From: Candidatus Kapaibacterium sp.
GTDB taxonomy: Bacteria > Bacteroidota > Ignavibacteria > Tepidaquicellales > Tepidaquicellaceae
Direction: 5' to 3'
DNA: 64,000 bases
Assembly: GCA_041675325.1 (NCBI GenBank)
Contig: JBAYUG010000004.1
Coordinates: 15,759 to 79,758, forward strand
Shown here: one piece after another, positions 33,479 to 54,986 of the stretch
How the letters are laid out: each line of letters opens with the position of its first letter
How positions within the stretch are numbered: position 1 is the stretch's first letter
Translations under genes and position numbers: made by a program
Notes under the pieces: generated by a model
What the model saw: only the letters and a program-made list of their open reading frames with translations
The model's database searches: none
What the model was told of the DNA's origin: nothing

Positions 33479-35377
33479 ATGAAATACTTGAACTCTATCT
33501 CGTTTTTAACATTGTTGATGTTTGTAAATATTTCTCTGGCGCAAATGACACCTTTGCCCACTCAGACATCTTCTATTTTTTCCGGCTCAGGCAACTGTGC
33601 AACTTGTCATACCGGAAACGGAATTGTGCTTACAGAAAACGGTGTTGATATTTCCCCTATCACTCACTGGCGTTCCTCTATGATGGGTAATTCATCTAAG
33701 GACCCTTTCTGGCGTGCAATCGTTGCAGAAGAAATTCACGAGCATCCTCAGTTTCAGTTTATAATTGAGAGCACTTGTACAAAATGTCATGCACCTATGG
33801 GACACAGACAGGCAATTCAGAACGGTGACTCAGGATACACTATGTCACAGATGAAAGCAGACCCCCTCGCAAACGATGGTGTAAGTTGTACATCCTGCCA
33901 TCAGATTAAAAATACAAACTTCGGTTCTTCCTCAAGCTATACCGGCGGATATAACATTACTACTGAACGAATTATTTACGGTCCGTATCCGAATCCCCTT
34001 GTACAGCCGATGATTACATTTGTTAACTATACCGCCGTTCATTCTACATCAATGAATAATTCAGAGCTTTGTGCGACCTGTCATACATTGTTTACACCTA
34101 CTGTAAACTACTCAGGACAGATTGTGGGCTCTTTTCCAGAACAAACACCTTATATCGAATGGAAGAATAGCAATTATAAAACTTATAACGTTCCTTGTCA
34201 GACATGTCACATGCCTATAACTAATACACCGATAGATATATCTTCTATCCCTCCCTTCGATACAACAAAGCGAAGCCCGTACTGGAAACACCTTTTTGGT
34301 GGCGGCAACACTATGCTAAATAGAATCATGAGAAATAATATTGATTCACTACAACTTTCTGCTTCTGCTTCAAACTTTGATACTACATTGGTCTATACAG
34401 AGAGAATGCTTAAGGAAACCGCCGTGAACCTTACTATTACACCGGCGTACAGCTCTGGCTTTATAAATATTGGCGTTACAGTTGAAAACCTCGCTGGTCA
34501 TAAATTACCAACAGGAATTCCGTACAGAAGAATGTGGGTTCATTTTAAAGTCAAGGACCAAAGTAACAATATAATCTTTGAATCCGGAAACTGGGATACT
34601 CAGGGTGAAATCATAGGGCTGGATTCTTTATATGAACAGCACTATTCTGAAATTACAAATACGAATCAGGTTCAGATTTACGAAGGTGCCTTTAAAGATA
34701 TTAATGGTAACTTTACGTTTAACCTATTAAGATCAGCCGCTTTCTTAAAAGATAACAGACTTCCCCCTAAAGGTTTTAACACTTCTCATCCAAGCTATGA
34801 CACAATAGCGATTGTAGGCGGTGCTGTCAGCGACACTAACTTTAACAGACAAGGAACAACTCAGGGCACGGGCAGGGATATTATTTATTATAAAGTGCCT
34901 GCTGTAACCGGGTCACAGTACACGATTTCTGCTGAACTCTGCTACCAAACTATTCCGCCCCGGCTTGTTACTTATATACAGGGTATAAGTTCTCCCGACA
35001 TACAAAAGTTTGTATCCCTTTATAACACAGCTGATAAGTCTCCTGTAATCATGAAAACTGTATCCGTTCCATTCTTAACAGGCGTTAATCCTATCGGTAA
35101 TATTACACCCGCATCATTTAAACTTTATCAGAATTATCCGAATCCGTTCAACCTCTCAACAAAAATTAGATTTGATGTACCAAACGGTAATAAATTTATT
35201 AGTCTGAAAATATATGATGTGCTTGGAAAAGAAGTCCGGACGCTTGTTGCGGGATCTTTGATACCGGGTTCTTATGAAACAGATTTTGATGCCAAAGACC
35301 TTTCTTCGGGAATGTTCTTCTGTGTTTTGCGCTCAGAAAGTTTTTACGAAATCAAACGTATGATGTTTATTAAATAA
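33479..35377 (+). CDS. Pentaheme c-type cytochrome with T9SS C-terminal sorting domain
   Basis: 632 aa with a signal peptide and five CXXCH motifs (CATCH, CTKCH, CTSCH, CATCH, CQTCH). The C-terminus (YQNYPNPFNLSTKIRFDV...GMFFCVL) is T9SS-CTD-like. Confidence 0.85.
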   Translation: MKYLNSISFLTLLMFVNISLAQMTPLPTQTSSIFSGSGNCATCHTGNGIVLTENGVDISPITHWRSSMMGNSSKDPFWRAIVAEEIHEHPQFQFIIESTCTKCHAPMGHRQAIQNGDSGYTMSQMKADPLANDGVSCTSCHQIKNTNFGSSSSYTGGYNITTERIIYGPYPNPLVQPMITFVNYTAVHSTSMNNSELCATCHTLFTPTVNYSGQIVGSFPEQTPYIEWKNSNYKTYNVPCQTCHMPITNTPIDISSIPPFDTTKRSPYWKHLFGGGNTMLNRIMRNNIDSLQLSASASNFDTTLVYTERMLKETAVNLTITPAYSSGFINIGVTVENLAGHKLPTGIPYRRMWVHFKVKDQSNNIIFESGNWDTQGEIIGLDSLYEQHYSEITNTNQVQIYEGAFKDINGNFTFNLLRSAAFLKDNRLPPKGFNTSHPSYDTIAIVGGAVSDTNFNRQGTTQGTGRDIIYYKVPAVTGSQYTISAELCYQTIPPRLVTYIQGISSPDIQKFVSLYNTADKSPVIMKTVSVPFLTGVNPIGNITPASFKLYQNYPNPFNLSTKIRFDVPNGNKFISLKIYDVLGKEVRTLVAGSLIPGSYETDFDAKDLSSGMFFCVLRSESFYEIKRMMFIK

Positions 35378-35436
35378 CCTTTTAAGTATTGTATTTGTTT
35401 ATATAAAATAACACGTTAAATAAATATTAGTATATA

Positions 35437-36183
35437 TCACGTGTGATTGTGATATATACTAAGAACAAACAACAAGGCAACACCTGCCAAGAATGCCAGA
35501 CCATGAATAATATTATTTTTTAGAGTAGTGTGTTTATTAACTTCGGGAATTAAATCTGTTGCACCAATATACAAGAAGTTCCCTGCTGCAAATGGTATAA
35601 GGAATGACACATTAATTTTGTCAGAAATAAAATATGTAATCAAACCACCAATTAAAAACGTAGAAGACGAAAGCAAATTATAAAGAATAGCCTTCTTCTT
35701 TTCCCAGCCGCTATGTACAAGCGCCGCAAAATCACCAAGCTCTTGTGGAATTTCGTGAAAGATTGCACCTAACCATGCGATTAAACCAAGATTAAAATCT
35801 ATAAGGAATAATCCGGATATCGAAAGACCCCCTATAAAATTATGTAAACCATCACCAAGCAATATTAACACGGACATAGGCTTTCTGCAGTCGCTTTCGG
35901 CTTTTTTACAATGGTGGTAATGCAGATACTGTTCAAATATAAAGAACAGACTAAACCCTGCGACGAATATAAGAAAGAATGTTCTAACATTCTCAATATG
36001 TTGTAAACCCTCAGGAACCATCATAAAAAAAGCACCGCCAATGAGTGAACCCGCAGAAAATGCTACAAGCGGCGTGAGAAGTTTTAATTGTGTTTGTTTT
36101 GTAAACAGCATTATAAGTCCTCCCGAAAGAGAAACAACGCTCATTAAAACCCCAAAAACTACAATCACTAAAAACGCACTCAT
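35437..36183 (-). CDS. ZIP-family divalent metal transporter
   Basis: 248 aa, polytopic, with the HEIPQELGDFA signature. Confidence 0.88.
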   Translation of the reverse strand: MSAFLVIVVFGVLMSVVSLSGGLIMLFTKQTQLKLLTPLVAFSAGSLIGGAFFMMVPEGLQHIENVRTFFLIFVAGFSLFFIFEQYLHYHHCKKAESDCRKPMSVLILLGDGLHNFIGGLSISGLFLIDFNLGLIAWLGAIFHEIPQELGDFAALVHSGWEKKKAILYNLLSSSTFLIGGLITYFISDKINVSFLIPFAAGNFLYIGATDLIPEVNKHTTLKNNIIHGLAFLAGVALLFVLSIYHNHT

Positions 36184-36376
36184 CTCTTTGTAATTAAATA
36201 TTTAAATAATATATTTTTACACTTCTCATGTTTGTATTAAAGAGAAACATTATTTGTCTCATTATTTGTCGGTTACTTTGCCTTGGTTCTGTTTGTAGCC
36301 ATGGTAATATCTCTTTAAAATAAGTGCTACTACTTAAAAACATCCGGTAATATTATATTCGTACATTGTCTGTTAC

Positions 36377-36443
36377 GGTAAAAGTTTTGCTCTTGACTTG
36401 TTTAAAATATCTTTATACTTTAGTTATGAACATTAGTTCATAA
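36377..36443 (+). promoter_or_regulatory. Promoter plus palindromic operator, copy 1 (upstream of the radical-SAM/CGGC operon)
   Basis: GGTAAAAgtTTTGCTCTTGACTT contains -35 TTGACT at 36393-36398. TACTTT lies at 17-nt spacing (36416-36421). The palindrome TTATGAAC-ATTA-GTTCATAA is at 36424-36443. Confidence 0.6.
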
Positions 36444-36564
36444 TATAACAAGTTTGTTATTATAATTAAATGACAATATGAATAGTTTTAATTCAGTAAA
36501 ATCATAGAAACAAACTAATAAAGAAAACGCCTTTTTGTTAAGGTTATCAGGAAAGGGGCAAAGA

Positions 36565-37593
36565 ATGGACAACACAAAAAAATGGTTAAGAAGGAAAATC
36601 GAAACCTTTTGTGCAGCGCTTGAGCGGAATATCTTGTTAAATAAATCTCTTAAGTGTAAGGTGGTTTTTGGTCCTGTACATTCAAGAAGACTTGGTCTTG
36701 TTATTGGAGTTAACAATATTAAACCAAGCACCTGTTCCTACAATTGTATATATTGTTCATCTGGAAATAAGACCTGTTGTTCTGTCTGTACTTCAAATTG
36801 TATTTCTCCTTACGAACTTCATGCCTCCATGAGAAATAAGTTAACAAACATTGATCAATTAAAAAATAAAATTAATTATATCGTTTTTACGGGGAGTGGA
36901 GAACCTGCTTTAGATACAGAGCTATCGAAAGAGATTACCATACTGAGAGAATTTGGATATAAAATTGCTGTTTTTACAAATGCTTCGCTTATTTGGAATG
37001 CACATATACGTGAAAATTTAATGTTTGCTGACTATGTTTCATTAAAAATTGACACAGTAAATCCGGAAACATGGTTGAAAATAAATCGTCCTCATAAAAG
37101 ATTAAGTTATGACTTAATCTTAGATGGAATTAAACAGTTTTCAAAAATATATAAAGGCAAATTGTCCACAGTGACAATGCTAATAAAAGATATAAACGAT
37201 AATAAGGAAGAAGTTGAGAAACTCGCAAATTACCTTAATACGATAAATCGTGAGGTTTCGTATTTTACAACCCCTGTGTTTCCACCCCAAGAAAGTTATG
37301 TAACGAGTCCCGATTCAAATAACCTCGATTTTTTAAAAAGCCTGATTAAAGAAAAGGTATCTAAAGCAGTATTGTTATGCTGCCCTGATAACGAAGAATG
37401 CTTTACATTGAACGATTTTAAAAATGAACTTCTGGGTTTGCTTGCTATTCATCCAATAGGTGTGGAAACAGTTAAACAGTTTGTTAAAAAAGAAGTTGAC
37501 ACAATAATGCTTAACGAAATGATTGAGAGAAAGATTATTGAAGAAGTGGATTTTCACGGTAAAAAATATTTTAAGGAATGTGCTGCTTTGTAA
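36565..37593 (+). CDS. Radical SAM protein, paralog 1
   Basis: I moved the start to ATG 36565, with GAAAGGGG upstream. VFGPVHSRRLGLVIGVNN...CSYNCIYC is a CX3CX2C motif, followed by an extra Cys-rich insert KTCCSVCTSNC. Confidence 0.85.
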   Translation: MDNTKKWLRRKIETFCAALERNILLNKSLKCKVVFGPVHSRRLGLVIGVNNIKPSTCSYNCIYCSSGNKTCCSVCTSNCISPYELHASMRNKLTNIDQLKNKINYIVFTGSGEPALDTELSKEITILREFGYKIAVFTNASLIWNAHIRENLMFADYVSLKIDTVNPETWLKINRPHKRLSYDLILDGIKQFSKIYKGKLSTVTMLIKDINDNKEEVEKLANYLNTINREVSYFTTPVFPPQESYVTSPDSNNLDFLKSLIKEKVSKAVLLCCPDNEECFTLNDFKNELLGLLAIHPIGVETVKQFVKKEVDTIMLNEMIERKIIEEVDFHGKKYFKECAAL

Positions 37594-37690
37594 ACAAGCC
37601 AAGGTTTACATTAACAGAAAAATGTGAAAGCAGATAAAGGGAAAAAGAGTTTTATTGAATTATAAAAAACATTAAATCATTAAAAAGTTC

Positions 37691-38137
37691 ATGAAAGAAA
37701 AAGTAAATATTGGTATTATAATTTGTGACAGGTATAAAAGCTGTGCAGGTGGTAAATGTTTTAGAGCAATTAAAGAAAGGTCAGGTGCTTTTGATATATA
37801 TGCAGATAAAGATGTAGAAGTAGTTGGATACACTTCCTGTGGCGGATGCCCGGGAGGAAATATTGAAAACAGTATGGAAGAACTAAAGAAAAACAATGCC
37901 GCTGTAATTCATTTTGCAACCGGAATGGTGGTTGGCTACCCTCCTTGCCCATACATTGATCATTTCAAATTATTTATTGAGAATATACACCGAATGAAGG
38001 TTGTTGTCGGTACTCATCCTATCCCGGAAAAATATTATTTAGCTCACAGAGAAATGAAAACCTGGGCATCAGAGGAGTGGGCTGATTTGTTAGAACCAAC
38101 TTTATGTAACAAAGTAACAAGAGTATATTATGACTAA
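37691..38137 (+). CDS. CGGC-domain protein
   Basis: 148 aa. IGIIICDRYKSCAGGKCF and YTSCGGCPGG match the CGGC domain signature. Confidence 0.8.
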   Translation: MKEKVNIGIIICDRYKSCAGGKCFRAIKERSGAFDIYADKDVEVVGYTSCGGCPGGNIENSMEELKKNNAAVIHFATGMVVGYPPCPYIDHFKLFIENIHRMKVVVGTHPIPEKYYLAHREMKTWASEEWADLLEPTLCNKVTRVYYD

Positions 38138-38142
38138 TTAAA

Positions 38143-39111
38143 ATGAGTCCTGAAGTTAATAATACGGAAATTGTATTCGGTCCGGTACCATCTAGAAGAT
38201 TAGGAAGAAGCATGGGAATCAACAACATCCCTCTGAAAACCTGTAGCTATTCATGTATTTATTGTCAGATTGGTAATACAAATATATTATCAACAAAAAG
38301 AAAAGAAATTTTTAAACCCAAACGAATCTATCATGAGGTATCCGAAAAGGTGATCTTTTTAAAGAGTCTTAACGAGCAAATAGACTATTTAACATTTGTT
38401 GCAGACGGAGAACCCACTCTCGATTTTAGTATTTGCAAAAGTATAGAAATATTAAAACCTTTAGGAATTAATATCGCTGTTATAACAAATTCTTCTTTAC
38501 TTTGGGACAAAGACGTTAGAAATGATTTAATGAAAGCTGATTTAGTCTCAGTCAAAATAGATACGGTTATTCCTGCCATATGGCATAAAATAAACAGACC
38601 TCATGGAAGCTTAGAACTTGATAAGATTATAAATGGAATCAGAGAGTTTGCCGCCGAATATTCAGGAAAATTAGTTACTGAAACGATGCTTATAAAAGAT
38701 GTTAACGATGATAATAAATCGCTACAAGAAACAGCAGTAATTATTAATAGTCTAAGTCCCGCCAAGTCATTTATTTTAATCCCAACTCGTCCAACTGCTG
38801 TAAAATCTGCTATAGCACCAGACGAAGAAATTATTAATATTGCTTTTCAAATATTTAACGATATTATTAAAAATGTGGAGCTCGCAATTTCGTATGAAGG
38901 AACAAACTTTTCATTTCTGTTAAATTCAGAAAAAGAACTACTTAGTATCCTTGCTGTTCATCCAATGCGATACGATGATGTTGAAGAGTTTTTAAAAAAA
39001 TCAAATATGGGCTGGAACACATTTAATCAATTAGTAAATCAACGAATCTTAAAAAAAGTTAAATATCAGGGTAATTATTTCATAATGAAAAGTAATCTCA
39101 ATATATTGTGA
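38143..39111 (+). CDS. Radical SAM protein, paralog 2
   Basis: VFGPVPSRRLGRSMGINN...CSYSCIYC. Collinear with paralog 1 along its whole length, including the C-terminal LLSILAVHP... tail. Confidence 0.88.
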   Translation: MSPEVNNTEIVFGPVPSRRLGRSMGINNIPLKTCSYSCIYCQIGNTNILSTKRKEIFKPKRIYHEVSEKVIFLKSLNEQIDYLTFVADGEPTLDFSICKSIEILKPLGINIAVITNSSLLWDKDVRNDLMKADLVSVKIDTVIPAIWHKINRPHGSLELDKIINGIREFAAEYSGKLVTETMLIKDVNDDNKSLQETAVIINSLSPAKSFILIPTRPTAVKSAIAPDEEIINIAFQIFNDIIKNVELAISYEGTNFSFLLNSEKELLSILAVHPMRYDDVEEFLKKSNMGWNTFNQLVNQRILKKVKYQGNYFIMKSNLNIL

Positions 39112-39163
39112 CAGTATATATTTTTTTAAAAACGTTTATTTAAGTCTAAAATAGGAGATTAAA

Positions 39164-39427
39164 ATGCCAAACTTAAACGGAACATGTCCAATTGGAAATG
39201 GACCAATGACAGGAAATAAATTAGGGAAATGTAACACCCCAAAATCTACTGTAACTGATAGTTCGGTATCCGATAACAGTGCAGCTAATTTTGAAGTGAG
39301 AAAAAGTGCTTTCAATCGTTGGAGAAGATTTGGCTTTGGAGGCGGTAGAGGCTTTGGAGGCGGCAGAGGTTTTGGAGGCGGCAGAGGCTTCGGAGGCGGC
39401 AGGGGCTTCAAAGGTGGCAAAGATTAA
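39164..39427 (+). CDS. DUF5320-like small protein with (GGGRGF)4 C-terminal repeat
   Basis: 87 aa with a strong RBS (TAGGAG, 7 nt spacer). The N-terminus MPNLNGTCPIGNGPMTGNKLGKC resembles the DUF5320 MP..DGTGP.G.GPMTGRG.G.C signature. The tail is FGFGGGRGFGGGRGFGGGRGFGGGRGFKGGKD. Confidence 0.7.
   Translation: MPNLNGTCPIGNGPMTGNKLGKCNTPKSTVTDSSVSDNSAANFEVRKSAFNRWRRFGFGGGRGFGGGRGFGGGRGFGGGRGFKGGKD
39332..39421 (+). repeat. 18-bp in-frame tandem repeat x5 (last copy degenerate) encoding GFGGGR units
   Basis: Units are ggctttggaggcggtaga / ggctttggaggcggcaga / ggttttggaggcggcaga / ggcttcggaggcggcagg / ggcttcaaaggtggcaaa. Confidence 0.9.
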
Positions 39428-39544
39428 ATTATAAATGTACTTTATAGTTTATTTTATCTTGCTGGTTACATCCATTATTATCGATGTATCTGCTTCGTAG
39501 CTTAAACCGGATCAAAAATTGAAAAACACAGAGGGATCTTGATT

Positions 39545-39611
39545 GGTAAAAACTTTGCTCTTGACTTATAAAACAATTATCTTTAAATTTATTATGAGCA
39601 TATGCTCATAA
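39545..39611 (+). promoter_or_regulatory. Promoter plus palindromic operator, copy 2 (upstream of the NifX-like/pdaD operon)
   Basis: GGTAAAAacTTTGCTCTTGACTT contains -35 at 39561-39566. TAAATT lies at 17-nt spacing (39584-39589). A perfect 20-bp palindrome, TTATGAGCATATGCTCATAA, is at 39592-39611. Confidence 0.6.
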
Positions 39612-39639
39612 TAAATAATTAATATTAATAAAAAACCAA

Positions 39640-40050
39640 GTGAAAATTGCAGTAGCTTCAGACAACGGAAAAACAATAACAGGTCACGTTGGGAAATGTG
39701 AAATGTTTATCGTCTTTGATATAAACAACAAAGAAATCACGGGCATTGAAAAAAGAATAAATACTTTTACAATGCACAAAAAAGAAGGTCATCGGCACGA
39801 ACATCATCATGATGAACATAATCCCAACCAGCAAGGCGTTGGAAAGCATTTAGGAATTATTGAAGGTCTAAAAGACTGTAATTATCTTTTTTGTTGTTCT
39901 GGTGGCCAGGGATTAATGAGTGATTTAAATGCAAATGGTATTCAGACGATATTTACCGACGAAGTAGATGCAGAAGATGCTGTTAAATTGTTTCTGGCGG
40001 ATAAATTAAAAAGTGACCCTAATAAACAATGTAGTGGACATAGTCACTAA
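39640..40050 (+). CDS. NifX/NifB-like (dinitrogenase FeMo-cofactor-binding fold) protein with His-rich insert
   Basis: GTG start. [27 protein letters not shown] is the family's typical N-terminus. The insert is [15 protein letters not shown]. Confidence 0.8.
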
Positions 40051-40055
40051 ATAAA

Positions 40056-40601
40056 TTGTTCGTACCCACTAAAATATTTTTCACAAAAGGTGTAGGCAGG
40101 CATATAGAATACTTAGCCTCCTTTGAATCTGCGTTACGTAGTGCAGGAATAGAGTTTTGTAATCTCGTAATGGTGAGTAGTATCTTTCCGCCAAATTGCA
40201 AAATGTTATCGAGAGAACAGGGTATTAAAGAAATATTACCGGGACAAATAACATTTGCAGTAATGGCTAGAAACCATACTAATGAACCTAATCGTTTAAT
40301 CGCTTCATCAATAGGCGTTGCCATCCCCTCTGATAAATCGCAGTATGGTTATTTATCTGAATACCATCCTCAGGGAGTCAATGAAAAAACTTGTGGCGAC
40401 TATGCCGAAGATTTAGCCGCTCAAATGCTTGCTTCTACCCTGGACGTAGAGTTCAATACGGATACCGATTGGAATGAAAGGGAACAGGTCTTTAAAATGT
40501 CAGAAAGAATAGTTAAAACTTTTAATATTACTAAAACTGCCAAAGGGGACAAAAACGGATTGTGGACTACTGTTATATCAGCCGCAATTTTGTTACCATA
40601 A
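40056..40601 (+). CDS. pdaD: Pyruvoyl-dependent arginine decarboxylase
   Basis: 181 aa with a TTG start. [16 protein letters not shown]...[12 protein letters not shown] contains the Ser-Ser self-cleavage site characteristic of PdaD. Confidence 0.85.
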
Positions 40602-40785
40602 TAAATATTATTAGACTTCATTAATTACAAATTTGTTTATAAATTACATTTAAGTATGAACAACAAAGGGCATGCTAAGTTTTGTCTGTGGGAAAAATGA
40701 ATTCTCGAAACAATAGTAAAAATTAGTCACCGTAATGCAATAGTGTTGTACTAAAATGTTTAAAATATTTGAGTATTTATAGATT

Positions 40786-41196
40786 ATGGCAAGACCTGTT
40801 AAACAAAGGAAGATATTAGCGCCACATTCAGACATTTGGTTTTTTCCGGCAGGAAATAGAAATCCCGATGCTGATAGCCTTTTATTCCTTGCCGAGGAAT
40901 TTGAGGCTGTAAAATTAATAGACTATGAGGGCTTAAACCATTCTAAGGCTGCAAAGTTGATGAAAGTATCCAGACCTACATTTACAAGAATATATAAACG
41001 GGCAAGAATTAAATTATCAACATCACTTGTCGAAAAAAGAACTTTGAAACTCTCTGGTGAAAATATTTATTACGGTGATAATTGGCATAAATGCCAAAAC
41101 TGTGAATGTATTTATAATGTTGTAAAAAAATCAAATCCGGAATTTTGTCCGCTTTGTAAGAGTACTAATTTTATAAATATACTAAACATTGATTAA
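40786..41196 (+). CDS. DUF134-family HTH protein with C-terminal 4-Cys zinc ribbon
   Basis: MARPVKQRKI..., EEFEAVKLIDYEGLNHSKAAKLMKVSRPTFTRIYKRAR (HTH), then CQNC...CPLC. Confidence 0.82.
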   Translation: MARPVKQRKILAPHSDIWFFPAGNRNPDADSLLFLAEEFEAVKLIDYEGLNHSKAAKLMKVSRPTFTRIYKRARIKLSTSLVEKRTLKLSGENIYYGDNWHKCQNCECIYNVVKKSNPEFCPLCKSTNFINILNID

Positions 41197-41202
41197 TTTG
41201 AT

Positions 41203-41514
41203 ATGAAGGTAGTAACCGTAAAAGAAGACAATTTGAATTCCCCAATCGAGGATTGCTTTGGAAAAACAAAGTTTTTCTGCTTTATCAAAGATGATATTAA
41301 TAATATTGAGTTTGTATCGAATCCCGGCAATGATTTTTTGAAAAACTCGGGCAAAAAAGCAGTAACATTTTTACACTCAAGGGGTGTTACCTCTGTTATG
41401 TCAGGAAACTATGGAATGACTGTAAAAAAAATGTTCGATAAACACAAGATCCAGACTATTATTATACCTGCAAAATATAAAAACCTAACCCAGCTTTTAA
41501 AAATATTGAAGTAA
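41203..41514 (+). CDS. NifX/NifB-like domain protein (short)
   Basis: 103 aa. MKVVTVKEDNLNSPIEDCFGKTKFFCFI fits the family N-terminus; this is the weakest of the three. Confidence 0.68.
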   Translation: MKVVTVKEDNLNSPIEDCFGKTKFFCFIKDDINNIEFVSNPGNDFLKNSGKKAVTFLHSRGVTSVMSGNYGMTVKKMFDKHKIQTIIIPAKYKNLTQLLKILK

Positions 41515-41581
41515 AAAACTATTCTTAGATGTTAATAGAACAAATAAAAGCAAATAGAATTTCTCAATATCTCTTTTCTTT

Positions 41582-41625
41582 AATCAGCACCATGTGTTTT
41601 AGGGAAAAAACACATGGTGCTGATT
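41582..41625. terminator. Perfect 19-bp-stem hairpin between convergent operons
   Basis: aatcagcaccatgtgtttt-agggaa-aaaacacatggtgctgatt. Confidence 0.8.
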
Positions 41626-41629
41626 TAAT

Positions 41630-42337
41630 TTATTTCTTCACTAATTTATCGAGTATTGTCTTCTCAGGAATTTCTTTAGTACAGAAAAACCAGTCATAAC
41701 ATTTCATCTTTTCTTTGCTTTCCATGCGTTCTTTCGCTACACCACAGGATCCGGCTGTAGGCACTATAACGTCGTCACCAGGTCTCCAGTCTGCCGGGGT
41801 TGCTATCGAGAATTCGTCAGCAGCCTGCATTGCAATTAAAGCTCTGTAAAGCTCATCAAAATTCCTTCCAAGACTCAAAGGGTAATATATAATTGCCCGG
41901 ATTATTCCTTTTGGGTCAATAAAAAATACTGCTCTGACGGCTTTTGTTGAGCTCTCGCCCGGTTGTATCATTCCATACTTTCCTGCTACTTCCATTGTAA
42001 TGTCTTCAATAAGAGGAAACTTAACTTCTACGTCTTTCATGCCTTTGTATTCTATCTTTTCTTTGATGGTTCTCAGCCATGCTATATGACTGTATAATCC
42101 GTCAACCGAGAGACCTACAAGCTTGCAGTTTGCCTTTGCAAACTTGTCTTCCATCGTTGCAAAAGTCATGAACTCAGATGTACAAACAGGAGTAAAATCT
42201 GCCGGATGACTGAATAAAATTACCCAGCTTCCCTTGTAATCTGATGGAAAATTTATATCTCCCTGAGTTGTTACAGCTTTAAAATCAGGGGCTTTTTCGC
42301 CGATTCTCGGCATTGCTATTGCTTTGTTTTCTTCCAT
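41630..42337 (-). CDS. Peroxiredoxin (Prx6 subfamily, archaeal-type with C-terminal Cys pair)
   Basis: 235 aa with FSHPADFTPVCTSE (peroxidatic Cys) and a C-terminal SCGVAKE...KCYDWFFC. Confidence 0.92.
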   Translation of the reverse strand: MEENKAIAMPRIGEKAPDFKAVTTQGDINFPSDYKGSWVILFSHPADFTPVCTSEFMTFATMEDKFAKANCKLVGLSVDGLYSHIAWLRTIKEKIEYKGMKDVEVKFPLIEDITMEVAGKYGMIQPGESSTKAVRAVFFIDPKGIIRAIIYYPLSLGRNFDELYRALIAMQAADEFSIATPADWRPGDDVIVPTAGSCGVAKERMESKEKMKCYDWFFCTKEIPEKTILDKLVKK

Positions 42338-42393
42338 GATTATTTATATTTGGTTTTTAATAAAAAAGGAGTTTGTTATTCTTAATACAACCA

Positions 42394-42798
42394 TTAGTTG
42401 CAATCTGCTCCGTGTTGATGTCTGTGATTGTGTTGATGGTTGTGTCCATGATGATGCTCATGCTCCTTGCACATTTCTCCGTTGTCTTTTATGTTACCGT
42501 TTAGCCAGTCATTTAATACGACTTTTACGTTGCCTGAACATCCTCTTACGACCGCAATACCGTTATCACTTAACTTGTTAACAGCACCGCCTCCGATATT
42601 GCCCGCTAACATTACTTTAACACCAATTTGTGTTAATTTTTCTACAACATTAGATTTGCATCCGCAGCTGTCAGGAGAAGAAATTATTTCTTCGTGTATG
42701 ATTTCTTTCTTGTCGTTCGTTGTGAAAACCATAAAATACTCGCAATGACCAAAGTGGTCATCTACTATACCCGAATGTGTTGGAATTGCTACTTTCAT
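42394..42798 (-). CDS. NifX/NifB-like domain protein with His-rich C-terminal tail
   Basis: MKVAIPTHSGIVDDHFGHCEYFMVFT; the tail is CKEHEHHHGHNHQHNHRHQHGADCN. Confidence 0.82.
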   Translation of the reverse strand: MKVAIPTHSGIVDDHFGHCEYFMVFTTNDKKEIIHEEIISSPDSCGCKSNVVEKLTQIGVKVMLAGNIGGGAVNKLSDNGIAVVRGCSGNVKVVLNDWLNGNIKDNGEMCKEHEHHHGHNHQHNHRHQHGADCN

Positions 42799-42851
42799 CT
42801 TATTTTTCCTTATAATATTTTAAAAAGTAATTCTGTTTTAATTTAAATAAT

Positions 42852-43823
42852 TCATTCATATAAATCATGCTCTCTTAACCAGTCGTCATTATGATACTTC
42901 GATAAATATCTCTCCCCTGTATCACAAACGATAAACACTACAACAGCATTTTCATCAAGGTTCTTTGCAATTTCAAGCGCTGCATAAGCGGCCGTTCCCG
43001 AAGAAGCACCGCAGAAGATACCTTCTTCCAAAGAAAGCCTCTTGCACATATTAATAGAATCTATGTCTTTTACACTTACAATTTCATCAACATAATCGAA
43101 ATTTGTTATCGGTGGAATAATATCTGTTCCCAGACCCTCAATCTGGTGAAGCGTCGTTTCTCCTATCTTTCCCGTATCTTTGTATCTTTTAAAGTTCGAA
43201 CCAATCGGGTCTGCTCCCGTCACCTTTATATTAGGATTCTTTTCCTTTAAATATTTTGAGACACCCGTTATTGTTCCTGCTGTTCCTACTCCGCAAACAA
43301 AATGTGTTATATTTCCGTCTGTATCGTTCCATATTTCTGTACCCGTACCGGAATAATGACTAAAAGGATTTGATTCGTTGGCATATTGATTTAAATTTAT
43401 TGCATTAGGTATTTCTTCAGAAAGTGCTTTCGCTTTATTCCTGTAATAATCTGGTGAGTCAGGCAGAGCCTCTTTTGGTACTATCACAACTTCAGCGCCA
43501 AGAGCTTTTAGATAGTTTCTTTTCTCCTGTCCGATTTTATCTGTCATTACAAGTATTACCCTATAACCTTTAACACGCCCGGCTAATGCAAGACCTATTC
43601 CTGTGTTTCCGCTCGTAGCCTCAACAATTGTTGACCCGGGTTTTAATAAACCCTTACTTTCAGCATCCTCTATCATTGCAAGCCCAACCCTGTCTTTAAC
43701 ACTTCCGCCCGGGTTTGTAAATTCGATTTTAGCAAGTACCGTTGCTTTAATTCCTTTCGTAAGATTATTTATCTTTACAAGTGGTGTGTTGCCTATTAGT
43801 TCAAGTATATTCTTGTAATACAT
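42852..43823 (-). CDS. cysK: Cysteine synthase (O-acetylserine sulfhydrylase / CBS-like PLP enzyme)
   Basis: 323 aa with NPGGSVKDR (PLP Lys), TSGNTG and GTAGT motifs. Confidence 0.88.
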
Positions 43824-43846
43824 ATTGTTTAATTTGTTTTGTTAGT

Positions 43847-44260
43847 TTAATCTGTCTCTTCTTTTGTACTTATAAGCTTTATACATTTTGGACAATTATT
43901 ATTATTTAATATTTTGTCCGTAAGTATAAAGTTGTTTTTACAAATTTTACATCTGGACTTATTAGTTTTTCCAAAAGTATAACTTCCGCCTTCAATTTTT
44001 ATTGCTTTCCCGAAAAGAATAGCATCTGTAATTTTTGAATGTGCCTTTTCAACAATGCGCCCAAGCGTCTGTCTCGAAATTCCCATTTTCTCAGCTGCTT
44101 CTTCTTGATATAATTTCTTTATGTCAGTTAATGTTATCGCTTCCAGCTCGTCATAGGTTAATACAACTTCCTCAAGATTTCCGAGAGGAATACCTCTCGG
44201 CTTGAAATAGCTGGACTCAGGGCTGAACGATACTTTCCTTATTTTTTTAGGTCTCGGCAT
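43847..44260 (-). CDS. DUF134-family HTH protein with C-terminal 4-Cys zinc ribbon
   Basis: I moved the start to ATG 44260, giving MPRPKKIRKVSF... DELEAITLTDIKKLYQEEAAEKMGISRQTLGRIVEKAH (HTH), then CKIC...CPKC. Confidence 0.82.
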   Translation of the reverse strand: MPRPKKIRKVSFSPESSYFKPRGIPLGNLEEVVLTYDELEAITLTDIKKLYQEEAAEKMGISRQTLGRIVEKAHSKITDAILFGKAIKIEGGSYTFGKTNKSRCKICKNNFILTDKILNNNNCPKCIKLISTKEETD

Positions 44261-44268
44261 AATGTACA

Positions 44269-44288
44269 AAATGGGCATATGCTCATAA
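44269..44288. promoter_or_regulatory. Palindromic operator, copy 3 (DUF134 / cydA divergent region)
   Basis: aaATGgGCATATGCTCATAA matches copy 2 at 17/20. It starts 9 nt upstream of the DUF134 start and ends 97 nt upstream of the cydA ATG. Confidence 0.5.
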
Positions 44289-44384
44289 TAAATCAAGCCA
44301 TTTATAAGCAATAAATTATGAAATAAATTGTACTATATTTTGAAATTATTTCTTTATATGTTTATATCAACCTTATTCAATAGA

Positions 44385-45755
44385 ATGGATACTGAAATAT
44401 TATCAAGAATTCAATTTGCTTTTACAATTGCCTTCCATTACATATACCCTCCGATAAGCATTGGTCTTGGGGTGCTGCTTGTTATTATGGAAGGTATGTA
44501 TGTTAAAACAAAGAATAAAACGTATGAACATATAACAAAGTTCTGGATTAAAATATTTGCGTTGGTCTTTGCTATGGGAGTTGCCACCGGAATTGTCATG
44601 GAGTTTGAATTCGGCACAAATTGGGCGACTTATTCAAGATTTGTTGGAGATGTATTTGGAAGCGCTTTGGCAGCTGAAGGAATTTTTGCTTTCTTTCTTG
44701 AATCGGGTTTTCTTGCTATTCTTGTTTTTGGCTGGAACAGGGTTTCTACTAAAATGCATTTCTTTTCAACCATCATGGTTTCTTTGGGTGCCATGTTAAG
44801 CGCAGTTTGGATTATTGTTGCAAATTCCTGGCAGCAAACCCCCGCGGGGCATCATATTGTTAATAATGCCGGAATCCTGAGAGCAGAAATCATCGATTTC
44901 TGGGCAATGATTTTTAATCCTTCCTCTGTTGACAGGCTTACTCATACTCTATCCGCCGCTTGGTTAACAGGTGCGTTTCTTGTATTAAGCGTCTCTGCAT
45001 ATTATCTGCTTAAGAACAAGCATCTCGATTTTTCCAAAAAATCTATAAAGATTGCTCTCGGACTTGCAATGTTTGCTTCTCTTTTTCAGCTCTTTACAGG
45101 ACACCAAAGTGCTGTTGGCATCAGCGTGAATCAACCGGCAAAACTTGCTGCATTTGAGGGACATTACAACACTTCTCCGGCTCCTCTTTATTTATTTGGA
45201 TGGGTTGATGATAGTCAACAAAAAGTAAATTTTGGAGTTTCCGTCCCTGGTATGTTGAGCTATCTTGTTCACGGAGATTCGAAAACCTCCATTGTGGGTT
45301 TGAATGAATTTCGTAAGGAAGATAGACCGCCCGTAAATCTTGTATTCCAATCTTATCATCTTATGGTTGCAATAGGTATGATTTTGATTGGAATCAGTTC
45401 TCTGTCAATAATAATGCTCCGAAAAGAGAAGTTGTTTAAAAGTAAAATAATGCTTAAGGTACTGGTTTTGTCTGTTCTTCTCCCGCAGGCGGCTAATCAA
45501 CTCGGGTGGATGTCTGCCGAAGTTGGCAGGCAGCCATGGATAGTTTACAACCTGCTTCGTACTAAGGATGCTCTTTCAAAATCAGTTACAGGAAGCGAAG
45601 TGTTGTTTTCTCTTATATTGTTTCTGTTAATCTATGCCCTGCTGTTTATATTATTTTTGTTCTTGCTCGATAGAAAGATTAAACATGGACCCGATATAAG
45701 TGATAATTCTGACGATGTTTATTCATCTCAGAAAGGAATGTTAAACAAAAATTAA
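44385..45755 (+). CDS. cydA: Cytochrome bd ubiquinol oxidase subunit I
   Basis: I moved the start to ATG 44385. [23 protein letters not shown] and [12 protein letters not shown] are present. Confidence 0.93.
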
Positions 45756-45763
45756 ATCAAACT

Positions 45764-46780
45764 ATGGACTTAAATATTATCTGGTTTATACTGGTTGGGA
45801 TTTTGCTTACTGGCTATGCTATCCTTGACGGATTCGATCTCGGTGTCGGTGCCTTACACCTGCTTACGAAGAGTGACCTGAACAGAAGGATATCAATTAA
45901 TTCTATCGGACCGGTATGGGATGGAAATGAAGTTTGGCTCGTAACAGGCGGAGGTGCTCTCTTTGCTGCGTTTCCGGATGTTTACGCAACAGTATTCTCT
46001 GGTTTCTATATTGCTTTTATGCTTCTCTTATTTTTTCTGATATTTCGTGCAGTTGCGATTGAATTCAGAAGCAAGCAGGAAAGTAAACAATGGCGGGTTT
46101 GGTGGGATAGAGCATTCAGCTTTTCAAGTATTTTAATAGCTTTATTGATGGGTGTTGCATTAGGAAACATAATCACTGGAATCTCTATTGGTCCGGATAA
46201 AGAATACATGGGTACTTTTCTTGAATTATTAAATCCCTATTCGATACTAGTTGGAATAACCACTGTCTCCTTGTTCATTATGCATGGTGCAATATATCTG
46301 GTTATGAAAACCGAAGGAGAACTGCAAATTCAAACAAAAAGCTGGGTTAATAATACGATTATTTTCTTTACCATTTGTTTTGTCACGACTACCATGGCGA
46401 CATTAATATATTATCCTGGTATGGTCTATCATTTTAAAGATTTTCCCCCGTTCTTTCTTCTGGCAATTATTACTATGCTTGCAATTGCGAATATACCCAG
46501 AGAAATTCATCTTGGCAGAGAGTTCAGAGCGTTTCTGTCATCTTCTGCAACAATCGCTTTGTTGCTGGTTTTATTTGCTGTAGGAATATTTCCAAACCTG
46601 GTTTTATCAAACCCTAATCCGGAATATAGTCTAAGCATTTACAACGCAGCATCATCACAGAAAACATTAATGATTATGCTTATAATGGCGATTATAGGAA
46701 TGCCTTTTGTGATAACTTATACGATAATAATTCAAAAAATATATAAAGGGAAAGTAAAAATTGATGAAATGAGTTATTAA
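45764..46780 (+). CDS. cydB: Cytochrome bd ubiquinol oxidase subunit II
   Basis: 338 aa. IWFILVGILLTGYAILDGFDLG is the typical CydB N-terminus. Confidence 0.92.
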   Translation: MDLNIIWFILVGILLTGYAILDGFDLGVGALHLLTKSDLNRRISINSIGPVWDGNEVWLVTGGGALFAAFPDVYATVFSGFYIAFMLLLFFLIFRAVAIEFRSKQESKQWRVWWDRAFSFSSILIALLMGVALGNIITGISIGPDKEYMGTFLELLNPYSILVGITTVSLFIMHGAIYLVMKTEGELQIQTKSWVNNTIIFFTICFVTTTMATLIYYPGMVYHFKDFPPFFLLAIITMLAIANIPREIHLGREFRAFLSSSATIALLLVLFAVGIFPNLVLSNPNPEYSLSIYNAASSQKTLMIMLIMAIIGMPFVITYTIIIQKIYKGKVKIDEMSY

Positions 46781-48948: not shown

Positions 48949-49332
48949 TTAAATAAACCCTAACTCGTACTTTGCCTCTTCAGACATGTTGTCAAAGCTC
49001 CACGGAGGGTCAAAAGTTATTTCTACTCTTGCATCGTTTACCATTGGATGCTCTCTGAGTTTTTCCTGTACTTCTCCCGGCAGCGTTCCTGCTACTGGAC
49101 ATGCAGGGGAGGTTAACGTCATTACTACAAATACATCTCCGTTCGTTGCAAGATTAATATCATAAATTAAACCCAGGTCATAAATATTAACAGGGATCTC
49201 AGGGTCAAAACAGTTTTTCAGTACTTTTACAACCTCTTCTTTTAGTACTTCAAGGTCAACCGTCTTGCTTTCGCTTGCAGTATCTGTCTTTTTCTCTTCG
49301 TTATTTGTATTTTCTTCTTTCATATCTTCCAA
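48949..49332 (-). CDS. sufT: SUF Fe-S assembly protein (DUF59/SufT-like)
   Basis: CFDPEIPVNIYDLGLIYDI and TLTSPACPVAG. Confidence 0.82.
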   Translation of the reverse strand: MEDMKEENTNNEEKKTDTASESKTVDLEVLKEEVVKVLKNCFDPEIPVNIYDLGLIYDINLATNGDVFVVMTLTSPACPVAGTLPGEVQEKLREHPMVNDARVEITFDPPWSFDNMSEEAKYELGFI

Positions 49333-49347
49333 GTAAAATCCTCTGAT

Positions 49348-49773
49348 TTAATTGCTGTTTATACATTGTTCCGCACTTCTCTTCATAAACTTTATCATCG
49401 ATACAAGTCCGTTTGACCTCGTCGGTGAGAGATGCTCTTTCATACCTATCTTGTCTATAAATTCAAGTTTAGCATTTATTATGTCTTCGGGTTTCTTGTC
49501 TGATAATACTTTCACAAGCAGCCCTACCAGCCCCTTTGTTATTATTGCATCGCTGTCTGCGTCAAAATATAATTTCCCATCTTTATATTCAGTGTGCAGC
49601 CATACTTGTGAAACACATCCAGCAACCTTGTTCTCATCTGTTTTGTAAACCGGGTTCATTGGTTTCAGGCTCTTCCCGAAGTCTATTATATATTCATACT
49701 TATCTTCCCAATTATCAAAAAATGAAAAATCTTCTATTATTTCTGCTTCAGTCTTATCTATCGTGTTTTCCAT
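49348..49773 (-). CDS. sufE: Cysteine desulfuration protein SufE
   Basis: 141 aa with GCVSQVWL (persulfide-acceptor Cys). Confidence 0.88.
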   Translation of the reverse strand: MENTIDKTEAEIIEDFSFFDNWEDKYEYIIDFGKSLKPMNPVYKTDENKVAGCVSQVWLHTEYKDGKLYFDADSDAIITKGLVGLLVKVLSDKKPEDIINAKLEFIDKIGMKEHLSPTRSNGLVSMIKFMKRSAEQCINSN

Positions 49774-49776
49774 ACT

Positions 49777-50994: not shown

Positions 50995-51027
50995 ATTATT
51001 TAATCATCTATATATCATTCAAAAATC

Positions 51028-52305: not shown

Positions 52306-52306
52306 T

Positions 52307-53059: not shown

Positions 53060-53254
53060 ATTTATTAATATTTATTATTTAGTTCTTCATTATATTTAAT
53101 TTTTTAATCTTCTGTGTTTTTGTCATCCCCGCGTGTTTTTGGCAGGGATTTAACCCCGTTTTCAATGTTTTTTATTTGCTTTTGTTACAAAATTTAAGTT
53201 TTGAGACAAACTCCGTGGTGAACGCCCTTTGCGGTTAAATATCCTTCTGTCTCT

Positions 53255-53298
53255 TATCCGCGTAAATCTGCTTCATCCGCGTTAATCCGTGTTCTATT
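53255..53298 (+). repeat. Module A copy inside the sufB-sufC intergenic gap
   Basis: tatccgcgtaaatctgcttcatccgcgttaatccgtgttctatt. Confidence 0.9.
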
Positions 53299-53356
53299 TT
53301 TGCATTGTGAACAACAATTCTAAGTTTCTTTCCGCAGCTATCAACTTTCACCCAAA

Positions 53357-54793: not shown

Positions 54794-54986
54794 ATGTATA
54801 TAACTTGTTTATTTTTCAGTATAATAGAAAACAGGACTATTTTAGTCCCATTTATAAATTTAAACCCCAACATCTCTCAAAAAGTTCATAAATATACCAA
54901 AATAAGCATAAAATTGTGTCTGTAAAATATTTATATTGTATTTTGCGACCTTTTGTACTCCAAAAGCGTCTTATATACAAACATTA

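Follow-up and report, generated by a model that had tools for sequence, protein, structure and literature searches.

A conserved palindrome as the probable operator of DUF134 family regulators in a Candidatus Kapaibacterium locus

A 64,000-nt stretch of DNA from Candidatus Kapaibacterium sp. (assembly GCA_041675325.1, contig JBAYUG010000004.1, positions 15,759 to 79,758 of the forward strand), hereafter the window, carries three copies of one 20-bp palindrome in the promoter regions of three neighboring operons, which raises the question of what protein reads this palindrome and with what consequence for the genes behind it. Two of the three operons encode small helix-turn-helix (HTH) proteins of the uncharacterised DUF134 (UPF0251) family, referred to here as DUF134-1 and DUF134-2. 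Based on comparative sequence analysis, we consider it likely that the three palindromes, Pal1, Pal2, and Pal3 (Table 1), are operators for these two proteins, which would bind them as dimers and repress the operons, with individual sites assigned to the two paralogs as set out below.

The dyad and its predicted readers

The promoters of the first two operons, modules 1 and 2, form a 69-nt repeat present twice in the window (36377-36445 and 39545-39613; 72% identity in a repeat search, GGTAAAAnnTTTGCTC included). The 14-mer TTTGCTCTTGACTT within this repeat has only two exact copies in the window, at 36386-36399 and 39554-39567, and in both modules the palindrome begins 25 nt past the -35 hexamer, that is, 2 nt past the -10. 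The symmetry of Pal2 reaches 30 bp (39587-39616), while Pal3 is placed between the start codon of the minus-strand DUF134-2 gene (ATG 44260, 8 nt off) and that of the divergent cydA gene (ATG 44385, 97 nt off). An earlier reading of this DNA, made from its letters and open reading frames without database searches (the sequence-only reading), had described two collinear 58-nt modules, three palindromes, the twofold 14-mer, the 17-nt spacing of the hexamers, and the 25-nt offset, and we reproduced all of these base for base, as well as the third copy at 44269-44288 with its 17/20 identity and its distances of 97 nt from the cydA ATG and, by our count, 8 nt from the DUF134-2 ATG. Chance can be excluded as the source of the three sites: a search of the 64 kb with TTATGARCANNTGYTCATAA, allowing up to three mismatches, returned these three and no further such palindromes, against an expectation of 0.23 and with 0 of 100 shuffles yielding three. 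When we scored the window with a weight matrix built only from sites in other genomes, Pal2, Pal3, and Pal1 took the first three ranks (35.5, 24.6, and 13.2 bits, respectively), and the next-best position reached 4.9 bits.

Orthologous promoters keep the same blocks in the same arrangement. In L081, a syntenic Ignavibacteria relative, and in L085-L087, the order of -35, 25-nt offset, and palindrome is retained, and alignment of the modules leaves only CTTG, TAnnTT, and the dyad invariant, with unrelated spacers between them. The Pal1 ortholog in L081 (18614-18633) is the perfect palindrome TTATGAACATATGTTCATAA at the same 25-nt offset. Orthologs of Pal2 read GAAC/GAAC in L081, L086, and L087 and form a GAGC/GAAC hybrid in L085, compared with GAGC/GCTC in the window, and Pal3 orthologs are present in L001, L050, L081, L082, and L084. 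Aligning orthologous intergenic regions, a check that the sequence-only reading had called for, thus bears out its suggestion of selection on regulatory sites, as dyad and promoter blocks recur with drifted spacers in all four relatives. Its further claim that conservation extends upstream of the 14-mer fares less well: the extension is indeed shared by modules 1 and 2, but its GGTAAAA is not conserved in L081 in the promoter alignment, and it probably reflects a resemblance between two promoters of one genome, not an additional site.

The dyad is found far beyond this lineage, and its association with DUF134 appears from whichever side the search is begun. Our gene-to-site sample comprised 80 species-representative genome loci chosen solely by DUF134 homology (804 kb), spanning about 11 phylum-level groups by record title (Ignavibacteriota, Thermodesulfobacteriota/'Deltaproteobacteria', Spirochaetota, Acidobacteriota including Aminicenantes, Planctomycetota, Omnitrophota, Nitrospirota, Zixibacteria, WOR-3, Clostridia, and a PVC-group metagenome-assembled genome). 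Under a strict pattern, a dyad centered on [GA]CATATG[CT] lies at most 200 nt upstream of DUF134 in 70 of these 80 loci, rising to 72 if two further loci are counted, in one of which the dyad has a single core mismatch while in the other it falls at the edge of a contig; most of the loci left over have DUF134 inside an operon, with a site further upstream. The consensus on these DUF134 promoters is TTATGAGCATATGCTyATAA, with CCCTTGACAAATTATGAGCATATGCTTATAATT as an example found within 120 nt upstream of a DUF134 gene, and GCATATGC occurs 85 times in the 804 kb, where about 12 copies are expected, nearly all of them just 5' of a DUF134 start. The site-to-gene sample consisted of 80 metagenome contigs chosen solely by the exact 20-mer TTATGARCATATGYTCATAA. 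In 61 of them a DUF134 gene, recognized with a hidden Markov model from the DUF134 alignment, abuts the 20-mer, and in two further contigs (L138 and L161) the DUF134 start is cut by the contig end. Elsewhere the genes directly 3' of the 20-mer encode DUF5320 proteins (L142, L152), a NifX-like protein divergent from cysK (L127), a PAS/sigma-54 activator (L167), and a CusB/HlyD-type adaptor (L105). For exact metagenome sites of the GAAC type, DUF134 is the gene directly 3' in 17 of 24. On these sequence comparisons, the palindrome is a deeply conserved predicted operator, near-invariant across about a dozen phyla.

The identity of the bases in the dyad also follows that of the protein encoded next to it. 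We compared 149 non-redundant pairs of DUF134 protein and upstream site, counting per half-site, across the helix motif S62-R63-x64-T65-F66-x67-x68-I69. At the variable base of TGA[G/A]C, Q64 is paired with G in 142 half-sites and A64 in 40, neither ever with A, while P64 occurs with both (63 G, 47 A); at the same base, S67 accompanies A 25 times and G 5 times, T67 accompanies A 12 times and never G, and G67 accompanies G 197 times and A 7 times. At T[G/T]AGC, all 30 half-sites of N68 proteins have T, compared with 227 G, 34 A, and 3 T for R68 (G or A in 261/264). Fisher tests of residue/half-site association give p = 3e-18 and 7e-21, and the code that emerges pairs Q/A64-G67-R68 with TGAGC, P64-S/T67 with TGAAC, and N68 with TTRGC. 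Single-linkage clustering did not settle whether the co-variation events are independent, and parsimony on a neighbor-joining tree was used instead; that tree, built with the helix columns left out, requires several independent changes of state, three for the N68/TT sites and 9-10 for the S/T67/AA sites.

Sites predicted blind, from the helix alone, were correct in four of four cases. TGAAC was predicted for three Bacteroidota proteins with the helix SRPTFTRI (L207-L209), and GAAC-W4-GTTC was found for each (TTTTGAACATTTGTTCATTA, AAATGAACAATAGTTCATTA, and TATTGAACAAATGTTCAATA), two of the three sites sitting between a Bacteroidetes-type -33 TTTG and -7 TAnnTTTG. TTRGC was predicted for a fusion protein with the helix SRQTFGNI (L210), and TTGGC-GTAT-GCTAA was found (TTATTGGCGTATGCTAACAA), directly after TTGACA-N17-TATTAT. 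In the AlphaFold model of DUF134-2, helices 36-47, 52-59, and 63-83, with predicted local distance difference test (pLDDT) values of 84-92, make up a three-helix HTH, residues 64, 67, and 68 fall within the first two turns of helix 63-83, and Foldseek superposes the HTH on extracytoplasmic function (ECF) sigma region 4 bound to -35 DNA; a sequence search of the PDB returned no DUF134 relative. Taken together, there is strong comparative evidence in favor of DUF134 as the reader of the dyad, and regulators of this family very probably bind DNA at the palindrome. The sequence-only reading had offered the two DUF134 proteins as candidate regulators by inference, and site association, helix co-variation, and the blind predictions now strongly support them as the binding proteins.

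Within the locus, the two paralogs share 27% identity and differ in their recognition-helix residues. DUF134-2 and all of its orthologs carry SRQT(L/F)GRI and have GAGC/GGGC dyads on their own promoters, and DUF134-1 and all of its orthologs carry SRPTFTRI; by site type, Pal3 (GAGC) matches the Q-G-R of DUF134-2 and Pal1 (GAAC) the P-T-R of DUF134-1. We propose that DUF134-2 reads TGAGC and autoregulates the DUF134-2-cysK-nifX-like-prx operon through Pal3, and that DUF134-1 reads TGAAC and controls the radical-SAM/CGGC/radical-SAM/DUF5320 operon through Pal1. Pal2, at the head of the nifX-like/pdaD/DUF134-1/nifX-like operon, would be a site for either of the two paralogs, or for both of them. 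Because Pal2 is of the TGAGC type here and of the TGAAC type in relatives, it may represent a DUF134-2 control point over DUF134-1 or else a shared site, and the symmetric double substitution may mark a change of controlling paralog. The earlier idea that one regulator couples three units needs correction, as the single regulator is probably two paralogs, with distinct helices that track distinct half-sites in more than 140 proteins.

Several observations weigh against this assignment. Linkage to the site is about as tight for the NifX-like gene as for DUF134, meaning that the attribution of binding to DUF134, and not to the NifX-like protein, rests on the fold and on helix co-variation. That co-variation is in part clade-following, and the code is not one-to-one, as P64 proteins adjoin both G- and A-type half-sites; cross-recognition between the paralogs is conceivable for the same reason. 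Pal2 is a TGAGC-type site although its operon encodes the TGAAC-type DUF134-1, so the wiring of the paralogs is ambiguous. Pal1 has the low score given above and an ATTA center, and since the largest shuffle maximum is 17.7 bits it would be unconvincing alone, without its ortholog; its center nevertheless appears normal for the TGAAC subfamily, whose Bacteroidota sites also have a W4 center in place of ATAT. Finally, a few exact 20-mers have no DUF134 nearby and are located either within inverted repeats of greater length or in the spacer of a CRISPR array.

In L141, the exact 20-mer TTATGAACATATGCTCATAA (988-1007) sits inside a spacer of a CRISPR array whose repeat is GTTCCCCACAGGCGTGGGGATGAACCG. 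In six other contigs (L096 at 1956, L117 at 7216, L094 at 1285, L113 at 3036, L119 at 2577, and L124 at 2855) the 20-mer is part of a longer perfect inverted repeat, for example GGTCAGT-(20-mer)-ACTGACC, with no DUF134 or NifX-like gene near; L096 and L117 share a flanking open reading frame, which suggests a repeated or mobile element.

Promoter geometry and competing readings

All sites overlap a core promoter with near-consensus hexamers and a 17-nt spacer (e.g. TTGACA-N17-TATAAT). For 99 TGAGC-type sites in other phyla, two arrangements stand out: 52 start 0-3 nt past TTGAC and fill the 17-nt spacer between -35 and -10 (geometry 1), and 24 start 24-26 nt past the -35, as in modules 1 and 2 (geometry 2). 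Positions 16-21 of the site read (C/T)ATAAT in 71 of the 99, supplying the -10 hexamer itself. TTRGC-type sites start 18-22 nt past the -35. The window contains both of the commonest cross-phylum arrangements, with Pal3 in geometry 1 and Pal1 and Pal2 in geometry 2. On the minus strand, the Pal3 region reads TTGATT-TATTATGAGCATATGCC-CATTTT-N7-ATG, of which L001 and L081 retain CTTGATTTATTATGAGCATATGCCCAT(A/T)TT, and the DUF134-2 transcript is probably leaderless because its ATG comes 7 nt past the -10, at the expected transcription start. A sigma-70 consensus scan of 36150-44450 was uninformative in this AT-rich DNA (47 promoter-like matches vs 35.6 expected); the same sigma-70 and terminator scan did recover TTGACT-17-TAAATT and the terminator at 41582-41625.

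Overlap with such good core promoters means that binding should block RNA polymerase, and hence repress the target genes and the regulator's own, which makes repression by occlusion the likely mode on grounds of geometry. In the mechanism that we propose, DUF134 most likely uses its sigma-70-region-4-like HTH to bind the 20-bp dyad TTATGA(G/A)C-W4-G(C/T)TCATAA as a dimer, and the bound protein would occlude RNA polymerase from the promoters of the target operons and of its own operon. The overlap of the palindromes with the core promoter, already described for modules 1 and 2 as repressor geometry, is confirmed here.

A DUF134 protein that binds the dyad but works as an activator, or as a NifX-like-dependent dual regulator in the manner of MerR, would fit the commonest geometry in that the operator falls between -35 and -10, and, for the divergent cydA, the upstream placement of Pal3 is conceivably that of an activator. 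We nevertheless regard such a mode as unlikely: the spacers have the optimal 17 nt and not the 19-20 nt of the MerR type, the -35 and -10 hexamers are near consensus (TTGACA, TATAAT) and need no activator, and geometry 2 covers the -10/+1 region, the classic position of a repressor. A MerR-type activator operator, sought as a candidate in its own right, was rejected on the 19-20 bp suboptimal spacer, both the window and the cross-phylum class having 17 nt.

It is quite improbable that the palindrome is bound by some other transcription factor, whether of the LexA type or a Rrf2-, Fur-, or MarR-type protein encoded elsewhere, and that DUF134 is merely one of the genes so regulated. The cores of Pal1 and of the L081 sites, GAACATATGTTC or GAACATTAGTTC, do match GAAC-N4-GTTC, and the window does encode a MarR-like protein (26350-26760) and an ECF sigma factor (54936-55619). 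However, GAGC is the form found in Pal2, in Pal3, and in about 100 sites from other phyla, the GAAC-type metagenome sites also directly precede DUF134 in the 17 of 24 cases counted above, the flanking genes include no SOS gene, and no other regulator gene is consistently adjacent; the half-site base tracks, and is predictable from, the recognition helix of DUF134. The LexA SOS box itself was considered and set aside. Its GAAC-N4-GTTC occurs in Pal1 only, with GAGC/GGGC in Pal2 and Pal3, and the genes 3' of the palindromes encode radical SAM, CGGC, NifX-like, PvlArgDC, DUF134, CysK, and Prx proteins, with no DNA-repair genes.

A nucleic-acid hairpin, either an RNA terminator or attenuator or a cruciform, in which the G-to-A and C-to-T changes would be compensatory, is very improbable. 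A terminator scan does pick out 39587-39616 as a hairpin of 13 bp with a T-rich stretch behind it, and changes from GAGC/GCTC to GAAC/GTTC do keep the arms complementary, but the 52 of 99 sites in geometry 1 occupy the untranscribed spacer between -35 and -10, the stem is AT-rich (3 of 13 pairs are G-C), and hybrid GAGC/GAAC sites are common (13 loci). Furthermore, Pal2 is preceded by a promoter, with the last stop codon before it 160 nt away, a search of 35000-46000 against Rfam 15 gave two chance-level matches only (E 0.3 and 0.89), both on the terminator hairpin and neither on the palindrome, and a hairpin would leave the co-variation with HTH amino acids unexplained. A Rho-independent terminator was likewise rejected as a candidate, given the few G-C pairs of Pal2, its position after a promoter, and the homologous dyad being untranscribed in those 52 promoters. 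That modules 1 and 2 resemble each other by recent within-genome promoter duplication or gene conversion, and so by descent and not selection, is barely credible, for although they form a 72% identical repeat with an identical 14-mer and GGTAAAA and their upstream extension lacks conservation in L081, the spacer has drifted between the conserved blocks, the same blocks and spacing recur with unrelated spacers in L081 and L085-L087, and Pal3 and more than 130 sites elsewhere have the dyad alone in common with them.

Genes of the locus and the candidate signal

Pfam confirms the gene calls of the locus, with three operons and a divergent cydAB (Table 1). DUF134-1 shows 100% identity to a protein from a Candidatus Kapaibacterium metagenome-assembled genome (phylum Bacteroidota, FCB group). 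Both DUF134 proteins of the window have the hallmarks of the family, namely an N-terminal M-x-R-P...R, the HTH signature S-R-x-T-F, and a C-terminal CxxC...CPxC ribbon. They also conform to the family alignment, in which M1, R3, P4, R8, S62, R63, T65, C104, and C107 are invariant and C123 and C126 are present in at least 90% of sequences; the true start of DUF134-2 is the ATG at 44260, which gives an N-terminus, MPRPKK, that fits this alignment.

Table 1. Features of the locus, with positions in the window.
Feature	Position	Strand	Details
Module 1, radical-SAM operon promoter, -35 TTGACT	36393..36398	+	CTTG invariant in 7 orthologous/paralogous promoters aligned
Module 1, -10-like TACTTT	36416..36421	+	17 nt 3' of -35; TAnnTT kept at same column of promoter alignment
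Pal1, predicted operator, TGAAC type	36424..36443	.	TTATGAAC-ATTA-GTTCATAA
Radical SAM, first gene of operon 1	36565..37593	+	PF04055; NCBIfam: sub-threshold MoaA-like and W-cofactor-maturase-like matches only
CGGC-domain protein, operon 1	37691..38137	+	PF08821, 1.9e-28
Second radical SAM, operon 1	38143..39111	+	PF04055
DUF5320-like, (GRGFGG)n tail, last gene of operon 1	39164..39427	+	PF17253 below cutoff, 22.7 vs 27 bits
Module 2, operon 2 promoter, -35 TTGACT	39561..39566	+	
Module 2, -10-like TAAATT	39584..39589	+	TTGACT-17-TAAATT; same promoter alignment
Pal2, predicted operator, perfect palindrome, TGAGC type	39592..39611	.	TTATGAGCATATGCTCATAA
NifX-like, His-rich tail, first gene of operon 2	39640..40050	+	PF02579
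Pyruvoyl-dependent arginine decarboxylase (pdaD), operon 2	40056..40601	+	PF01862, 2.2e-59
DUF134-1, operon 2	40786..41196	+	Helix SRPTFTRI; C-terminal CxxC...CPxC; PF02001, 50.3 bits vs cutoff 27
NifX-like, directly 3' of DUF134-1, operon 2	41203..41514	+	PF02579
Probable bidirectional terminator closing convergent operons 2 and 3	41579..41628	.	19-22 bp stem, 22-nt inverted-repeat arms, 6-nt loop, T-rich on both flanks
1-Cys peroxiredoxin, last gene of operon 3	41630..42337	-	PF00578 and PF10417
NifX-like, His-rich tail, operon 3	42394..42798	-	PF02579, 7.9e-20; resembles MrpORP C-terminal domain
Cysteine synthase/CBS-family pyridoxal phosphate (PLP) enzyme, operon 3	42852..43823	-	NCBIfam cysKM, 352 bits vs cutoff 344; PF00291 in L001 ortholog
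DUF134-2, operon 3	43847..44260	-	Helix SRQTLGRI; PF02001, 83.6 bits vs cutoff 27
DUF134-2 promoter	44268..44296	-	-35 TTGATT (44296-44291), 17-nt spacer, -10 CATTTT (44273-44268)
Pal3, predicted DUF134-2 autoregulatory operator	44269..44288	.	AAATGGGCATATGCTCATAA; TTATGAGCATATGCCCATTT on minus strand; 17/20 vs Pal2
cydAB, divergent neighbor of operon 3	44385..46780	+	cydA 456 aa from ATG 44385

What these operons respond to may be indicated by the NifX-like proteins. The gene directly 3' of DUF134 is a PF02579 NifX-like gene in 61 of 77 genome loci, both paralogs of the window have a NifX-like gene in their operon, and five proteins (L137, L139, L158, P0355, and P0373) are DUF134/NifX-like fusions, P0373 combining both domains with a Gly/Arg-rich tail (GGGRGMGG). 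Being co-transcribed with DUF134, and sometimes fused to it, NifX-like is a candidate sensor domain. DUF134-headed operons elsewhere contain genes for DUF5320, CGGC, ARMT1-like, and ZIP proteins and for Mrp/NBP35-ferredoxin ATPases, including the MrpORP architecture; DUF5320 genes are found in the DUF134 operons of L208 and L210, and a CGGC gene in that of L210. From gene fusion and gene context, we infer that the NifX-like protein could be the ligand-sensing partner of DUF134, with an Fe-S, thioferrate, or Mo-S type cluster as the proposed ligand, and an inorganic species of the Fe-S or Mo-S kind would give the signal, through its availability or through redox damage. Such a signal would be in keeping with the recruitment, in particular lineages, of cysteine synthase, peroxiredoxin, and a Cys/Met PLP enzyme. 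More broadly, and as a tentative proposal that may well prove wrong, DUF134 and NifX-like could constitute a widespread and unrecognised metallocluster-sensing switch of anaerobes, whose three-residue code let paralogs build small cascades; in such a switch, cluster availability would be reported by the NifX-like domain, which would thereby set how the DUF134 domain binds DNA.

A search for a common divergent partner of DUF134 in 47 genomes found none. The 47 divergent neighbors (among L001-L080) are heterogeneous and include four PAS/sigma-54 enhancer-binding proteins, three MoaE, two MOT1, two MoeA, and one cydA. Seven of the 47 are molybdenum-related, a thin hint that some DUF134/NifX-like pairs are tied to Mo or W handling.

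The sequence-only reading had also drawn cydAB into the regulon by way of Pal3, a coupling that our results do not support. Pal3 lies within the DUF134-2 promoter and outside any plausible cydA core promoter, about 65-100 nt upstream of plausible cydA starts. The divergent DUF134/cydA arrangement is conserved in L001 and L081-L084, in the Ignavibacteria/Kapaibacterium lineage only, consistent with cydA being the divergent neighbor in just 1 of 47 loci across phyla. Looking for a cydA promoter by eye and by alignment gave no convincing -35; the alignment has a conserved block, ATTGTACTATGTTAT, 45-58 nt before the cydA ATG. We therefore regard cydAB as at most a candidate member of the regulon.

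Other features of the three operons vary among relatives. NCBIfam supplies no specific names for the radical SAM, CGGC, and DUF5320 proteins of operon 1, whose DUF5320-like gene ends in five 18-nt tandem repeats (39332-39421) that encode the cationic, Gly-rich (GRGFGG)n tail. In operon 2, pdaD belongs to the L081 and L085 versions and is absent from those of L086 and L087. The pdaD/DUF134-1 gap (40602-40785) is unusually long at 184 nt, as compared with 134 nt in L081, 50 nt in L085, and none in L086/L087; searched for a separate operator, it yielded no dyad and a lone TATGAAC half-site at 40656-40662, and an internal promoter there is conceivable. The gene order of operon 3, peroxiredoxin included, is common to L001 and L081-L084. 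Its NifX-like protein has a partial NCBIfam MrpORP match of 62.8 bits, and its nearest solved relatives are TM1816, TM1290, and MTH1175.

At a distance of 240 nt from Pal1, a ZIP-family metal transporter gene (35437-36183, minus strand) diverges from the radical-SAM operon. Since the Vicingaceae contig L208 has a ZIP gene (6573-7316) within an operon headed by DUF134, certain lineages may include ZIP in the regulon. In L081 (16585-17352 and 18841-20405), the radical-SAM operon has an extra ARMT1-like gene within it, and the intergenic region equivalent to that of Pal1 adjoins, in place of ZIP, a divergent operon of a Cys/Met-metabolism PLP enzyme and a NifX-like protein. On the same side of the locus, 33479-35377 encodes a multihaem cytochrome c whose C-terminal domain is of the Por/T9SS sorting type; a gene for a homolog of this cytochrome is directly 3' of the peroxiredoxin gene in L082-L084. 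On the other side, 2 kb past cydAB, is a suf cluster (48949-54793, minus strand; SufB, C, D, S, and E and FeS_assembly_P), named from synteny and matching lengths with L081, with a Pfam check that covers 48949-49332 only. The ECF sigma gene at 54936-55619 (plus strand) is divergent from this cluster, and no DUF134-type site was found there.

Novelty and comparison with known systems

DUF134/UPF0251 is a large family, with about 3,800 representatives at 50% identity (E <=1e-10). Our search of the literature for DUF134, UPF0251, COG1342, and PF02001, which did not cover RegPrecise-type databases, found nothing on function or DNA site. The kind of system described here, an autoregulated HTH repressor with a palindromic operator, is ordinary. 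What is new is the predicted operator, recognition code, and core regulon for an uncharacterised family, the near-invariance of that operator over about a dozen phyla, and the NifX-like partner. The DUF134 family would thereby gain an operator, a code, and a core regulon together with a testable mechanism. The putative regulon (NifX-like, DUF5320, CGGC, radical-SAM, and Mrp/NBP35 genes) comprises poorly understood, anaerobe-specific genes related to the ORP complex and to IssA, and knowing their regulator opens the question of what those gene sets respond to. In addition, the promoter, operator, and repressor form a compact cassette with consensus sigma-70 elements that is testable in E. coli and may be reusable as a genetic part.

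In gene content, one close parallel is the ORP system. In Desulfovibrio vulgaris, the operons for the ORP complex are switched on by OrpR, a redox-sensing enhancer-binding protein that carries a [4Fe-4S] PAS sensor and activates sigma-54 promoters (PMC6345978; PMC8359166). Both systems involve NifX-like/ORP proteins, ferredoxin-domain Mrp/NBP35 ATPases, and small Fe-S proteins in anaerobe-specific divergent operons; moreover, PAS sigma-54 enhancer-binding proteins often adjoin DUF134-NifX pairs, and L210 encodes the MrpORP architecture. Unlike OrpR, DUF134 is a small HTH protein on sigma-70-type promoters and most likely a repressor. A second parallel is IssA/SipA of Pyrococcus furiosus, an IPR003731 NifX-like protein whose tail is cationic and rich in Gly; the protein stores Fe and S in the form of thioferrate, and sulfide induces it under iron sufficiency (PMC5524996). 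Targets in the window similarly include NifX-like proteins and a DUF5320 protein with its (GRGFGG)n tail, and P0373 ends in a Gly/Arg tail, but this resemblance of tails is compositional only, and the regulator of issA is, as far as known, not DUF134.

In fold, the best structural matches to the DUF134 core are HTH domains of ECF sigma region 4, GerE/LuxR, and DeoR proteins (2h27, 3vep, 7bhy, and 1fse; root-mean-square deviation 0.6-1.0 A over about 50 residues), with the caveat that the Foldseek E-values are weak (at least 0.01) and the matches comprise the three-helix core only. The first of these, 2h27, is sigmaE region 4 on -35 DNA, and Pfam also gives weak Sigma70_r4 matches to DUF134. 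DUF134 differs from sigma region 4 in its extra N-terminal beta region (MPRP...R..P..YFKP.GIP), its C-terminal Cys4 ribbon, and a target that is a dyad and not a single -35.

In operator and logic, two groups of repressors invite comparison. The LexA/DinR SOS box of Firmicutes, or Cheo box, has the consensus GAAC-N4-GTTC, a dyad core near-identical to that of the TGAAC sites (GAACATATGTTC), and is likewise a promoter-overlapping repressor operator bound by an autoregulated repressor. LexA, however, has a winged HTH and an S24 peptidase domain where DUF134 has a sigma-4-like HTH and a zinc ribbon, and in the system described here GAGC is dominant, the TTAT...ATAA flanks are conserved, and the predicted regulon concerns metalloclusters and sulfur, not DNA repair. 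IscR (Rrf2) and SufR are small, autoregulated, cluster-sensing repressors with palindromic operators on Fe-S-related promoters. DUF134 resembles them as a small predicted repressor on Fe-S-related promoters that include its own; folds and motifs are unrelated, and, where IscR and SufR sense clusters themselves, the putative sensor of DUF134 would be a separate or fused NifX-like domain.

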